Below, piece by piece: positions 2,292 through 53,909 of a stretch of DNA of 64,000 bases (positions are counted from its first letter, which is position 1; every line of letters begins with the position of its first letter). A model generated the notes under the pieces. That model did not search any database and was not told the DNA's origin. It saw only the letters and a list, made by a program, of their open reading frames with translations. Origin of the DNA: Eledone cirrhosa (taxonomy: Eukaryota). The translations under genes and the position numbers were made by a program. The stretch spans positions 21,204,001 through 21,268,000 of the forward strand of contig OZ024747.1 of NCBI GenBank assembly GCA_964016885.1. The letters are read 5' to 3'.

Positions 2292-2601
2292 TGATCAAAA
2301 GAACATCTATTTTATTAATACTTATATTTTAATATTAATAACTCCTGAAAATTATTTTACCGTTGAGTGCTTCCAATCTACTGTAAAACTCATTCTTTAA
2401 CATAATCATCGAATATTGTTTAACAACCTAATACTTACATATATATATATATATTGTTATACTTTGGGAGGGTCATGTTGCCAATAAGAAACACACGCAC
2501 CAGTTGCTTTCACTTCAATTTATAATAAATTTATAAATTTAGGAATTTATAAATTTCCGGTTGGTTGGTTGGTTCTACAACCAGATGGTTGTTTATATAT
2601 T

Positions 2602-2644
2602 GTCAAAGTTCTTTCGTCACACATTCTGTGACCTCTTCAGTGAC
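2602..2644 (-). ncRNA. Hammerhead-like motif (inverted copy of 2862-2904)
   Basis: Reverse complement of the plus-strand motif. Confidence 0.6.
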
Positions 2645-2861
2645 TGGGGATTCTTTTCTTTGTTTTTGTGCCTCTCCTTTGTTCTGTCTTACAAACAACC
2701 AACCAGTAACATGTAAATAAACAAATAAATAAACGAATATAAACACACACAGACACCCGGATGTGGCGCATGCGCAGACTGAGCACACAACACACACACA
2801 GAAACAAGATGGCGTAGGACAGAACAAAGGAGAGGCACAAAAACAAAGAAAAGAATCCCCA

Positions 2862-2904
2862 GTCACTGAAGAGGTCACAGAATGTGTGACGAAAGAACTT
2901 TGAC
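2862..2904 (+). ncRNA. Minimal type I hammerhead-like motif
   Basis: GTCA-CTGAAGA-G-GTCACA-GAATG-TGTGAC-GAAA-GAAC-TT-TGAC. One extra G after the core and an imperfect stem III palindrome (AGAACT). Confidence 0.62.
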
Positions 2905-3267
2905 AATATATAAACAACCATCTGGTTGTAGAACCAACCAACCAACCGGAAATTTATAAATTCCTAAATTTATAAATTTATTATAATAAATTGAAGTGAA
3001 AGCCACTGGTGCGTGTGTTTCTTATTGGCAACATGACCCTCCCAAAGTATAACAATATCGGTTTCCACACACGTTTTCAGATAAAGAATCTTGCTAAACA
3101 AATTCAGAAACGAAATATATATATATATATATACGTAAAAGTTCTATTTAAATTGTTGGGATACAACAAGCAAATATTTTTATAACTGATATAAAGCACT
3201 CAACAAATCATTGGAGTAAAAATACGATATATTAACAAATGGAAACTATATTTATGAAACCATATTT

Positions 3268-3330
3268 ATTTCATTATACATATTTCAAGGACACCAAGTT
3301 AAATTATGGTGTGCTTTCATCAGATAAAAT
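3268..3330 (-). ncRNA. Type I hammerhead ribozyme (inverted copy of 3461-3523)
   Basis: Reverse complement of the plus-strand motif. Confidence 0.8.
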
Positions 3331-3460
3331 ATAATATAGATCAGTTTTATAAATAAATATTGACATACCCTTAAAAAATGCTATCCGGGAGCTTCCAACA
3401 GTAATGGTTGCATTTTTTAAGGGTATGTCAATATTTATTTATAAAACTGATCTATATTAT

Positions 3461-3523
3461 ATTTTATCTGATGAAAGCACACCATAATTTAACTTGGTGT
3501 CCTTGAAATATGTATAATGAAAT
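3461..3523 (+). ncRNA. Type I hammerhead ribozyme
   Basis: ATTTTAT-CTGATGA-AAGcACACCA...TGGTGTcCTT-GAAA-TATGTA-TA-ATGAAAT; same stem III as 2229-2291. Confidence 0.82.
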
Positions 3524-49900: not shown

Positions 49901-50115
49901 TCCTTATTTAATATAGAAATAGCTTATAAAGAACTAGAACTGTTTCATTCATATGAAATCATCAGGAATCTTCTGATGTTTCCATACAAATGAAACAGTT
50001 CTAGTCCTCTAGAAACCATTTTTATTTCAAATAATGATCAATTACACTCTACAAATGTATTGAGTATCTTTTATAACTGTGGTTAACCCCTCCCCTGATA
50101 TTACTTAGGATCTAC
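49900..50115. mobile_element. Diverged minimal inverted HHR pair plus tail (family of 51476-51671)
   Basis: CTAGAACTGTTTCATT...TCATCAGGAATC then CTGATGT...GAAACAGTTCTAGTCC; tail ACTC...GTATTGAGTATC...CTGTGGTTA. Confidence 0.7.
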
Positions 50116-50168
50116 ATATATCATCATCATCATCATTTTCACATCCATTTTTCCACATTTGCATGATG

Positions 50169-51441
50169 TCATCATCATCATCACCGTTTTACGTCCGTTC
50201 TTCCAAGCTAACATGGGTTAGACGGGTTGTCCTGTTGTGGGCAGTGTCTGGTCGGCTGTCCATGCCTTGCTGATACAGGAACTGATTTGGCTTGATTTCT
50301 ACAGCTGGATGCCTTTTTTGCCGTGGCACCTCCACGACCACCTTGCAGTGGGGGGTGTGGGGGCATATTGTCTATATGCTTCAGCTTGTACCCATGGGAG
50401 GTCGGGTACTCTGTATTACTGCGTGACGCCAAAGGTGTAATTGGGTAAGGTCGGCTTTTATCACCTCATTCCAGATCAACTTGGGTCTCCCCACTCCGCG
50501 GTTTCCATCGACTTCTAGTGCTCTGCACCTTTTTATGCAGCTGTCATCCTTCATTCCGCATCACATGTCCATACCAACGCAACGACCTCTCCTGCACACA
50601 GCATTTGATTCATCTTATGCTCATTCTCTCTCTCAATTCATTTATGCTTTGCCGTTCGCGTATATTACTATTACACATCCATCGGAGCATGCAGGCTTTG
50701 TTTCTCTCTAATCTACGTAACTCTTCCACCTTCAGCGCCCAGGTCTCACTACCATGCAACATCGCTGTTCGGATACACGCATCATACAGTCTGCCTTTCA
50801 TTTTGAAGGAGCAGCCTTTTGCAGCTAGCAGTGGCAGTAGTTCCCTGAACTTCTTCCATCCCGTTCTTACCCTAGTTATTGTACTTTCTGAACACCCACC
50901 TCCGCTGCTCATTCGGTCACCTAGGTAGCAGAAGCTGTCTACTGTTTCTACAGAGTCCTCCCAGAGATTGGTGGTACTTGTTTCCTGTGGCTGTTTGCTG
51001 CTTGCTGTCCCAGCACAGCTGCTGCATGTGAAGCCTACATTCTTAATTAAGCTTCCTGAGATCCCGCTACATCTCTTGTGTACCCATTGTTTGCATTTGG
51101 GGCAGAGAATGGTGTTCCTACCTACACCTTTCCTATATACTGAGCAAGGCCATTTCCCTGAGGGGATCTGGGTTCTGTCTTCTCGTCTACTTACAAGGAC
51201 CTTAGTCTTTGTCATGTTGACTTTGAGACCCTTTCTTCCTAGTCCCAGCTTCCAAGTTTGGAATTTCTTCTCTAGTTCTACCATAGATTCAGCTATGAGT
51301 GCGAGGTCATCAGCATACAGGAGTTCCCATGGGCATCCGGTCTTAAACTCCTCCGTTATTGCCTGCAGGACTATGATGAACAGGAGGGGGCTAAGAACAG
51401 AGCCCTGATGGACCCCAAACTGTACGCTAAATTCCTCACTA
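50169..51441 (-). mobile_element. 5'-truncated RTE-clade LINE with RT core, Cys-rich insert and 3' UTR
   Basis: Minus-strand frame from 51441: GVHQGSVLSPLLF, LLYADDL, KVNMTKTK, CPKCKQWVHKRC, FCYLGD, MLHGSETW; premature stop at ~50610; (TGA)n tail. Confidence 0.92.
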
Positions 51442-51481
51442 GAGGATGTATATATATATATATATATATATATATATATAG

Positions 51482-51538
51482 ATGAGATTCTACAGGACTA
51501 GAACTGTTTCATTCATTAGAAATCATCAGGAATCTCAT
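51482..51538 (-). ncRNA. Type I hammerhead ribozyme
   Basis: Minus strand ATGAGATTC-CTGATGA-TTTCTAATGAAT-GAAA-CAGTTCTAGTCCTG-TA-GAATCTCAT with a 9-bp stem I. Confidence 0.8.
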
Positions 51539-51587
51539 GATTCCTGATGATTTCTAATGAATGAAACAGTTCTAGTCCTGTAGAATC
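51539..51587 (+). ncRNA. Type I hammerhead ribozyme
   Basis: GATTC-CTGATGA(51544-51550)-...-GAAA-CAG...CTG-TA-GAATC. Confidence 0.8.
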
Positions 51588-53909
51588 TCATCTATATTAA
51601 AACTTTTATACTCTGCTATGTATTGAGTACCTTACTTACTGTGGTTACCTCCGATTCAACCCGGAATAACGTATATATATATATATATGTGTGTGTGTAC
51701 ATATTTGTACATATCTATATTATATGCATACATTTACATAGTTAAGCCCCTGCACTCAGAAATCAAATCCAACTAAGGCTGGATTTCACTTTATTGCCTC
51801 CCACAGGGAATGCACACTAATACACATGCACCTCTATATACATATATACTACCATTTATATATATATATATATATATATATATATATATATATATATATA
51901 TATAACTACTTACATAAGAAGCACTTGTCAAATTTGAAATGTTGTCTTCCTAACCATAATAATAGTCAATCACTATAAATATTTGAGGAAATCACTTAAA
52001 TACCCCTGGAGACAGACAGACATGGATAGAGGGGGCTGTGTTGGAACAACTACAAATCAAATATACATATATACATTTATCATCATCATTAAAGTTTTAT
52101 GGTCATTTTTCCATGCTTGTATGGCTTGGTCAATTCTTTTCTAGCACAACATCTCTCTACTTGATGTGATCCTTCATTATGTGGACTGAGAGCTTCAATG
52201 ATTAGAGATCAGCTCTTACAATCTCTGGGATTTCTTTAATATTGCTGGGGATATGATATCTCTAGTGCTGGTGCCATGATGAAGTGTACCCTGTATATTC
52301 TGGAAAGTTGTTGGCAATAGAGAGGTCATCCATCCATAGAAAACATGCAAGATATTAAATGTATAGGTGGTATACTGTCTAACCCATGCAAGCATGGAAA
52401 ACTAGACATTAAAGAGTGATGATGATGATATATAGTTTTCAATCCATCTAGGAGTTCAGTAACTAAAAATAAGAACTGATTCAGTCTATGATGTTCTCGC
52501 CAATCCATGATAGCTTGGAAAAGCAGACATAAAAATATGATTATGAAGAGAAGGAAGTTGATACAGTTATGATATCTACAGTTTTTAGATATTTCCAAAA
52601 GCAATTTATCCACATAATTCCTAACAGTGAATTGAAATCAGGTCACCAGTTCACTCTGTGAATATCTAATGTTTTTTGTGAAATTCTTCATCATTGAATA
52701 GTTTCTTTGCTCATCTTTCCAACCTCTAGTAATCTTCAATCCTATATCATCCTTATCTCTCTTCACATTTCTTTGATGTTTTTCCAAACTTTCTAAGAGT
52801 CATCCTTTCATATCTCAGTACTACTGAAATTGTTTTTAACTGTTTCCAATCTTAACTCTTCATCAACTTCATTACCATTAGTTTAACATCATTTTATTCT
52901 ATTTTATTCTTTTCTAATATATATATTTTTAAAACTCTATTTTTTATTCTATGATAACTTGAATTTGAAGTGTCTCCATCATAGCATAATATCACTGTTT
53001 TCTAATCACCCCCATCACCTTCATCAGCTTATCTAGGCAACTAACTTAACATTGTAACATCTGATCTAACTTATTCATTCGGAATATGAAAAGATGAAAT
53101 ATTTGATAAAACTTCACAGTTTCAGTGAATGGCAATTTATTTATTCTGCAGCCATCAAGAGATTTGATCTCTTGATAGAGATAATAATCCTACAATAGTG
53201 TAACTTGATCTTTGAATGGTGCCAAAAGTAGTTTATTTCAGTGTGGCACAAGGACAGTTCTTGTCTGGAATTGTTAGTTTAGTTTGGAATAGAGTTCCAA
53301 GGAGATAGAAATGGTTTCTTTCTTAAAAAATTAGATAATCTTTATTTGGAAGCAAAGCATTAAATCTTCATTTGCTTTTCTTTTTGTGTTCTTTCTTTTT
53401 AATTTCTTCTTTTTTATTTTCAATTGTTATAATTGGTTGAACATGACAGAAAATTTAGATATTTTCATGAAAATTTAGAAAATCATGTCATCAAAGATGT
53501 TTTGGCTATGGCTAACGCATCTTTCATTCAGATATATCTACAGCTCTACATTTTTAAGACAGTAGGATACAATTTGAGGTATAATTATCTATTTCTAGCT
53601 TATTGAACGATTATGCTGGTTTGTAAATGAATTAGAATAGTTGGTGCTTTAAGGGTTAATAAAACATTCAGCTGTCACTCAGCATTCAGTGTTAAAATAC
53701 TCTGACAGGTAAATGTTTTATTAATTTTCTGGACCAAAGTTAAATAATTTTCTACAGTGTTTGGTATTGTAAGAGTTCCCTGTGGCTGGGGTGAGCCCTA
53801 TCTCTGAAACATTTTGAGTAATTGTTTTGTGACTCATTAATGACAATAATGTAAAGAATTAATTACCAACTCACATAGGCTGAAAATAAAGTTAGAACAG
53901 AAACATTAT

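Follow-up and report, generated by a model that had tools for sequence, protein, structure and literature searches.

A duplicated bulged hairpin in the leaders of Hydra-clade Penelope-like elements as a likely anchor of two reverse-transcription start sites

Within a window of 64,000 nucleotides (nt) from Eledone cirrhosa (contig OZ024747.1, positions 21,204,001 to 21,268,000), part of a 3.0-Gb animal genome rich in microsatellites, a short hairpin recurs and inserted arms break off just in front of it, which raises the question of what the hairpin does. An earlier note had described it as ACTC...GAGTRY, lying downstream of the hammerhead ribozyme (HHR) in the tails of unrelated HHR families, and had proposed a cis signal for reverse transcriptase (RT) binding or priming, for template switching, or an internal promoter element. 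Judged from sequence, the hairpin belongs to the 5' leader of Hydra-clade Penelope-like (PLE) retroelements, and intact elements carry a second, near-identical hairpin downstream, just before the ATG, which is new here. We consider it likely that each hairpin binds one RT and so would fix two internal start sites per RNA, the tail being the distance between the sites. Binding or priming is thus the part of the cis-signal idea that fares best, given covariation in the hairpin and ends just 5' of it; template switching and an internal promoter gained no support. Family letters (A, B, C, D, F, G, I, K, L, M and N) are labels coined in the present analysis; the hairpin nearer the hammerhead is called hairpin 1 and the one nearer the ATG hairpin 2.

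The ends of the insertions give the clearest footprint. When 201 arm ends were compared with references that continue into the open reading frame (ORF), 151 proved to be flanked by TA, indicating insertion into (TA)n, and 147 of these 151 lie just 5' of hairpin 1 (short ends) or hairpin 2 (long ends) in six families, as counted in zones drawn post hoc. Listed as hairpin 1 plus hairpin 2, the zones hold 21+25 of 47 ends in family C, 20+15 of 37 in M, 19+22 of 42 in B and 11+10 of 21 in D; families I and N add 3/3 and 1/1. Modal ends stand 2-9 nt before the stem. A family C query stripped of hammerhead and tail returned 30 loci, comprising 20 long ends, 9 short ends and 1 other, and in elements of other animals 21/33 ends fall at most 14 nt 5' of a hairpin. 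The two kinds of end are also combined in a fixed manner, one end per hairpin: among inverted insertions with both ends in TA, 44/47 join a long to a short arm, three have one stray end, and neither long+long nor short+short occurs. Tail-biased loci contribute 11 additional long+short pairs, and an unselected sample (98 stretches of 10 kb at round coordinates, 980 kb in all, the 98 that existed out of 100 requested), taken with the window and with family A included, shows 34 long+short among 36 inverted pairs. Were the sites picked independently, about half of pairs would be long+short; the strict pairing argues for use of both sites within a single complex. G is scarce in the 12 nt preceding each hairpin, and TATA or ATAT occurs there in 15/24 cases at hairpin 1 and 9/24 at hairpin 2, against 5/72 control windows. 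Most leader TATA/ATAT sites in M (10/11) and B (14/20) lie outside the zones and scarcely serve as ends, so complementarity to the target appears to tune the site without choosing it. The 5' junction of several full-length copies likewise falls directly in front of hairpin 1 or 2; a collapsed assembly could account for this, as could copying by unit lengths from a template that is tandem or circular.

Because hairpin 2 sits immediately past the long end and truncated copies lack it, it was invisible within the window to the author of the earlier note. From the end positions in four window families we predicted an RCTC just past the long end before any such copy had been seen. Genome matches to the prediction numbered 282 for family D and 89 for family B, some of the latter overlapping or stray, against 0 for the reversed control in each case, and 12 fetched B and D copies carry a full second hairpin before the Hydra ATG region. 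Other genomes agree. A set of 78 Hydra loci on metagenome contigs was obtained by full-length protein alignment (a metagenome scan with the N-terminal alignment gave no matches), and 45 of them have at least 120 nt before the N-terminal match; two hairpins are present in 28 of the 45 (one nested double count and several siblings included), one in 14 and none in 3, as against two hairpins in 4/719 control ORF windows. Hairpin 2 mostly lies 13-32 nt upstream of the ATG in these loci, and hairpins recur with a period of 55-83 nt across 24 distinct elements, or of 71-106 nt across six families from the present genome. By eye, several families show a further hairpin inside the tail, of a sequence not common to families, and in one group of elements from other animals the stretch from hammerhead to hairpin 1 holds an additional conserved stem that ends in GAGTAG.

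Copies extending past the long end reach Hydra-clade PLE ORFs in families B, C, I, M and N, in all five of which an RW[RK] motif follows the hairpin-bearing leader directly; family D could be followed only into the first residues of the ORF, those next to the ATG, and no ORF-linked copy was found for A, G, L or F. In the available text of Craig et al. (2021; PMC8557442), the Hydra clade is characterized by RWK in place of N-terminal GxKF/Y, DKG changed to DKT, CxCX5C, a C-terminal GIY-YIG, and CxxC and CxH around conserved E and N, together with a hammerhead in the pseudo-long terminal repeat (pLTR), insertion into (TA)n, an inverted 5'-truncated partner and a length generally below 3 kb. Against the DKT criterion, C, I and M have SDKT and N has SDKA. 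The 713-residue open frame of family C contains CNCLNKEAC, IVY..TYIG, CDLC and CMH, corresponding to CxCX5C, GIY-YIG, CxxC and CxH, and family I is alike. Clade placement rests on these motifs and on 35-53% identity to the homolog set; a Pfam scan of two Hydra proteins, including the first 564 residues of the family C frame, assigned no family. Family C has a 3' untranslated region (UTR) of more than 2 kb, a mixed TA/TG microsatellite, and so exceeds the clade's usual length, a criterion that is a tendency. Its many near-identical long open frames suggest that the family is young, and it may spread microsatellites via its 3' UTR. A structural model of residues 1-564 (pLDDT 92.5) finds its best solved-structure matches in TERTs at a TM-score of ~0.4, a predicted likeness that is expected for a PLE and uninformative on the hairpin.

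Hammerhead cores of the form CTGAnGA occur in B, C, D, G and I, and variant cores could be read by eye in A, M and N; the flanks of the family G hammerhead resemble those of B and D. The idea that the HHR families are unrelated fails, all traceable carriers being Hydra-clade PLEs. Their proteins are ~35-55% identical, and their loops, spacers and hammerheads are unalignable between families. Two cross-family protein queries led essentially to family M alone. Beyond this genome, the hairpin is found in 18/33 Hydra metagenome loci with enough 3' sequence, whereas Neptune-like GIY-YIG loci have it in 1/30, that one being a nested Hydra element. The top PF01541 loci have a CX2-5CxxC linker before the endonuclease (EN) and are thus Neptune-like, where hairpin carriers instead have CxCX5C; these loci lack the hairpin and were rejected as autonomous partners. 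Published coral and sea cucumber Hydra consensus elements, in the available part of PMC8557442, hold the exact hairpin; Hydra-1_Ajap has two tandem hairpins before the ATG, and two imperfect hairpins can be made out by eye in a copepod element.

As a structure, the hairpin has a lower stem of 4 bp (RCUC/GAGY), next to which 2 nt, the first a U, bulge out on the 3' side; an upper stem that varies and a free loop complete it, and R-C-U-N-U follows. The description of a varying loop between preserved pairing ends was accurate, with a free loop and the 4-bp stem conserved between families. Hairpin sequences share ancestry, so that all shuffle contrasts are inflated and their significance is overstated. 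With this in mind, upper pairs 1-3 were paired in 97, 81 and 67% of 64 non-redundant hairpins from other animals, anchored solely on the two lower arms, against 77, 41 and 41% after shuffling; upper pair 1 requires the 2-nt bulge, other bulge sizes pairing in 2-36%. An alignment of 41 hairpins, 4 from the window and 37 out of 39 listed ones measuring 20-24 nt, had 91.6% of cells paired against 78.3% when shuffled, in a register-specific manner, and a covariation score of 0.407 against 0.161, with 0/500 shuffles as high. Pair types and double-change pairs in these 41 were not above shuffles, and three lower-stem pairs are invariant. The basal pair alternates between A-U and G-C from family to family, and in B and D hairpins 1 and 2 of a single element differ in the same way. 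Taken on the score and the upper pairs, the check for covariation is positive.

We propose that a tandem transcript would pass through the hammerhead, hairpin 1 and hairpin 2, and that two copies of the RT-endonuclease protein would bind, one to each hairpin, with both strands of a (TA)n target being cut. Each cut target end would pair with the UA-rich stretch preceding one hairpin and prime cDNA a few bases 5' of that hairpin. The cDNA begun at site 2 would copy hairpin 1 and become the long arm with its tail, the cDNA begun at site 1 would skip hairpin 1 and become the short arm, and joining the far ends of both would produce an inverted insertion. Tail length would equal the spacing of the modules, a module being a UA-rich stretch followed by a bulged hairpin. 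We put at slightly better than even the fuller form of this proposal, namely that a duplicated telomerase-like module loads two RTs on one RNA and each, copying from its own fixed site, extends one end of a double-strand cut.

Within the window, all nine sites of the earlier note are present, in place or displaced by a few bases; the one at ~24352-24374 on the minus strand is there (24353-24378), its 5' arm being ACTT (24375-24378) and not ACTA. A strict pattern finds 18 matches, counting reverse-strand readings of identical self-complementary hairpins, against 5.9 +/- 2.4 (maximum 12) in 100 block-wise dinucleotide shuffles, and a refined pattern, partly circular because built from the same data, finds 12 against 1.7 +/- 1.3, two of the 12 being chance-like and one mis-anchored. 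In the 980-kb sample, a TA run lies 30-80 nt downstream of 51/80 ACTC..GAGTRC matches, compared with 6.4% of random positions, 0/37 and 6/60 matches to two other pairing patterns, and 7/26 matches with a non-pairing 5' arm. GAGTRT matches precede a TA run in 4/46 cases only, and the final base of the motif is accordingly C. The hairpin of the earlier note is thus real, but its final Y was too loose and GCTC..GAGC versions, such as that at 30911-30942 on the minus strand, had been overlooked. Its placement downstream of an HHR holds at most sites; 7414, 24353 and 35180 have just a truncated or damaged hammerhead upstream. As a general companion of hammerheads the motif does not hold up, many hammerhead families lacking it: among 80 hammerhead-like cores with a TA run within 170 nt, it stands before the run in 9, the other 71 being short arms, other families or chance. 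A hammerhead cleavage site or stem III decoy was ruled out, as GAGCAC and GAGCGC versions have no GUH triplet, and an Rfam search of the window gave nothing at the gathering threshold. The inverted arm does typically stop just before the motif, at 5-12 nt in 7 of the 8 reported sites that have a partner arm; the exception, 43407, has its arm end at about +1 (TA ambiguity), and 7414 has no partner arm. The window features are as follows.

47-389, plus strand: long arm of family N (Hydra clade), hairpin 1 decayed; stops 3 nt before the hairpin 2 position
510-618, minus strand: inverted short arm of the family G insertion, in (TA)n; stops 5 nt before the hairpin
2341-2370, plus strand: hairpin 1 of family G, with some decay in the upper stem; its hammerhead core occupies 2241-2272 and the long end lies near 2438
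3196-3217, minus strand: hairpin 1 of family B; hammerhead 3282-3323, long end near 3130, 3 nt ahead of the hairpin 2 position of intact copies
3390-3569, plus strand: inverted short arm of family B; stops just before hairpin 1
7414-7434, plus strand: hairpin 1 of an A-like copy with a decayed upper stem; its hammerhead is truncated or damaged, the long end lies near 7479, and no inverted arm accompanies it
24353-24378, minus strand: hairpin 1 of family A, for which no ORF-linked copy was found; long end near 24307
24384-24486, plus strand: inverted short arm of family A; stops 5 nt before the hairpin
30911-30942, minus strand: GCTC/GAGC hairpin of family F; long end near 30835, no CTGAnGA core within 200 nt upstream
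31446-31640, minus strand: inverted short arm of family C; stops 5 nt before hairpin 1
31823-31950, plus strand: long arm of family C; hammerhead 31823-31846, hairpin 1 at 31889-31909, long end near 31950, 7-9 nt ahead of the hairpin 2 position
32090-32110, minus strand: additional family C hairpin; the fragment stops at the hairpin itself, an exception to the end rule
35180-35201, minus strand: hairpin 1 of family L; inverted arm 35207-35333 stops 5 nt before it, long end near 35146
42152-42370, no single strand: second inverted insertion of family D; long end on minus, short end on plus
43407-43433, minus strand: hairpin 1 of family D; hammerhead 43493-43540, long end near 43355, inverted short arm 43686-43862
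45114-45616, no single strand: inverted insertion of family M (Hydra clade); each end stands 2 nt before a hairpin, the short one at hairpin 1 and the long one at hairpin 2
50046-50067, plus strand: hairpin 1 of a C-like copy; the long end lies near 50115 and an inverted short arm begins at ~49904
51476-51535, minus strand: inverted short arm of family C; stops 12 nt before hairpin 1
51544-51671, plus strand: long arm of family C; hammerhead 51544-51567, hairpin 1 at 51610-51630, long end near 51671

In families F and K the GCTC/GAGC hairpin precedes a long end by 70-90 nt (30835-31400 and ~3660-3750 in the window, both minus), and one GCTC/GAGC-hairpin locus outside the window holds a tandem copy of ~570 nt; the two families may ride on Hydra machinery as non-autonomous elements or as ones devoid of a hammerhead. 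The most frequent carrier is family A, with 27 copies in the 980 kb plus the window, nearly always truncated within a long hammerhead stem II, and its hammerhead core resembles the U3-A8 variant. Hammerhead families without the hairpin occur at 2530-3060, 12878-12902 and 46524-46548, and some such families, with variant cores, sit 3' of Neptune-like GIY-YIG ORFs. A tRNA-like repeat of the short interspersed element (SINE) type (2050-2230) is nested within the family G element and recurs at other loci. We take 50449-51497 (minus) and 32160-32400 to be RT-like fragments of a long interspersed element (LINE), RTE-like and split by family C insertions, and two open frames at 54738-55925 (plus) are presumably mariner transposase-like.

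Of the other explanations for ends at the hairpins, the one that survives best, though we think it unlikely, treats the motif as DNA: the GIY-YIG endonuclease would recognise the hairpin in single-stranded cDNA or an integration intermediate and cut just 5' of it, so that ends are set at resolution. Covariation would be the same for RNA and single-stranded DNA; Craig et al. attribute the tail to EN-mediated resolution (available text of PMC8557442), and the Drosophila virilis tail is cited as required for EN recognition in the consulted portion of Frangieh et al. (2024; PMC11167929). Copies with long ends, however, lack hairpin 2, so the enzyme could act only on a longer intermediate, and in the same portion of PMC11167929 the tail ends of PAc, a PLE of the Poseidon clade, are RT start sites in vitro. 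A less probable account has the hairpins direct RNA cleavage or termination just 5' of themselves, giving two RNA 3' ends to be copied by end-initiated target-primed reverse transcription. The sharpness of the ends would fit, as would Anolis RNA-seq read ends that match start sites (PMC11167929, same portion), but separately processed RNAs would pair randomly and not as 44/44 long+short, and PAc is described there as starting internally on unprocessed RNA.

A shade more improbable again is that the motif serves the ORF, 13-40 nt downstream, as a promoter or as a translation signal, the ends simply following (TA)n microhomology in AT-rich surroundings. Hairpin 2 does mostly lie 13-32 nt ahead of the ATG, the zones flanking the hairpins are TA-rich, and PLE promoters are located in the pLTR according to the consulted part of PMC11167929. 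This account nevertheless leaves the long+short pairing unexplained; other leader TATA/ATAT sites are hardly used as ends, the main short end of family C, at -5, has little TA match beyond it, and a register-specific bulge with compensatory pairs misfits a site in double-stranded DNA. That the hairpin is inherited similarity with no current function, as the single clade of all traced carriers and the three invariant lower-stem pairs might suggest, is hardly credible, since compensatory changes already largely refute it and since stem, bulge and R-C-U persist in two copies between families whose loops, spacers and hammerheads cannot be aligned, across ~35-55% identical proteins and also in coral and sea cucumber consensus elements.

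Several observations must be set against two hairpin-bound RTs with two fixed start sites. Binding, stoichiometry and priming are inferred from a genomic footprint, and to the inflated shuffle contrasts must be added that RNAalifold recovered only the lower 4 pairs and that single hairpins fold weakly, mostly at -2 to -5 kcal/mol. The end zones, 12-20 nt wide on the 5' side, were defined from the same data that they summarize, and the 50 of 201 ends without a TA flank were excluded. In other animals' elements, 10/33 ends lie elsewhere, several being breaks between sibling families, and 2 run through. No second hairpin was found for family A, where 20/20 fetched copies run into TA and a genome search gave 8 mixed matches against 27 in the control, and the exact window tail of family G joined to a second hairpin had 0 genome matches; in family C, hairpin 2 retains just a stem of 4 bp and a loop of 5 nt, the bulge being absent, and the long end is equally precise. 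PAc also differs, as far as the consulted portion of PMC11167929 goes: one AC-rich stem loop holds its start, where the sites here are UA-rich, G-poor and 5' of the stem, and neither a strand difference in start site nor a one-site-per-arm rule is reported there.

The Hydra clade, the PLE tail and the two start sites in a Poseidon PLE are already known. The hairpin, its duplication and the rule of one end per hairpin are not described in the open-access literature covered by the searches; word look-ups in the available text of PMC8557442, PMC4209133, PMC10085705 and a retrozyme preprint (bioRxiv 10.64898/2026.07.22.740005) likewise returned none of the three. The available text of PMC8557442 does not mention the hairpin and uses 'stem-loop' 0 times, and 'hairpin', 'stem' and 'tail' are absent from that of the preprint. 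The choice of PLE start sites, the one-sided tail and the inverted repeats have been a puzzle for two decades, the sole in vitro study having placed the starts and not the signal. If true, a two-RT module explains the PLE tail and inverted-repeat insertions, and a 20-nt portable RNA tag would set the start point of a telomerase-related RT. Because the motif is short, cross-phylum and duplicated, with ends fixed before each copy, it offers exact mutants and a defined RNA for structure, and as a duplicated cis signal it renders the origin of the PLE tail directly testable. It also marks element boundaries and clade for annotation.

How the proposed arrangement relates to known systems can be judged first within PLEs. 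With the Hydra clade as described in the available text of PMC8557442, the present elements have in common the protein motifs, pLTR hammerhead, (TA)n insertion and inverted partner; tails are 55-106 nt here and 30-40 there. PAc, in the consulted portion of PMC11167929, starts internally at two sites bounding its tail and extends both target strands; RNA ~55 nt 3' of the +111-118 start is required, and a dimer is predicted. The likeness is in two sites bounding a tail, seen here as a genomic footprint of two discrete end sites; PAc belongs to a different clade, and its tail lies within the ORF rather than in the 5' leader. The RCUC..GAGY motif is absent from the PAc RNA letters in the available part of Fig. 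S1 of that paper. By eye, the RNA stretch there contains two similar GAAnGC(C)UUC motifs ~60 nt apart, perhaps an analogous duplicated signal. Non-LTR retrozymes, according to the available text of the preprint cited above, have type I hammerheads derived from PLE pLTRs and form two or more tandem units, each of which bears a hammerhead. Copies in the window are instead dispersed and 5'-truncated, as single or inverted arms in (TA)n and not in tandem arrays.

Further afield, twin priming by L1 also lets two target ends prime two cDNAs and so yields an inversion, with a second primer that lands variably, whereas both start sites here would be fixed. The 3' stem-loops of LINEs and SINEs act in cis, are recognised by the RT and are copied, lying 5' of the RNA end; each hairpin here lies 3' of its putative start site. 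In telomerase RNA, an alignment region, the primer-pairing stretch, lies beside RT-binding stems and initiation is internal. The arrangement proposed here would differ in having no repeat addition and no template boundary, two modules, and primers made by an endonuclease; what the two would have in common is a layout, a short primer-pairing stretch next to a protein-binding stem. PLE RTs are the closest retroelement relatives of telomerase, and a primer-pairing stretch beside a binding stem would bear on the origin of the logic of telomerase RNA.

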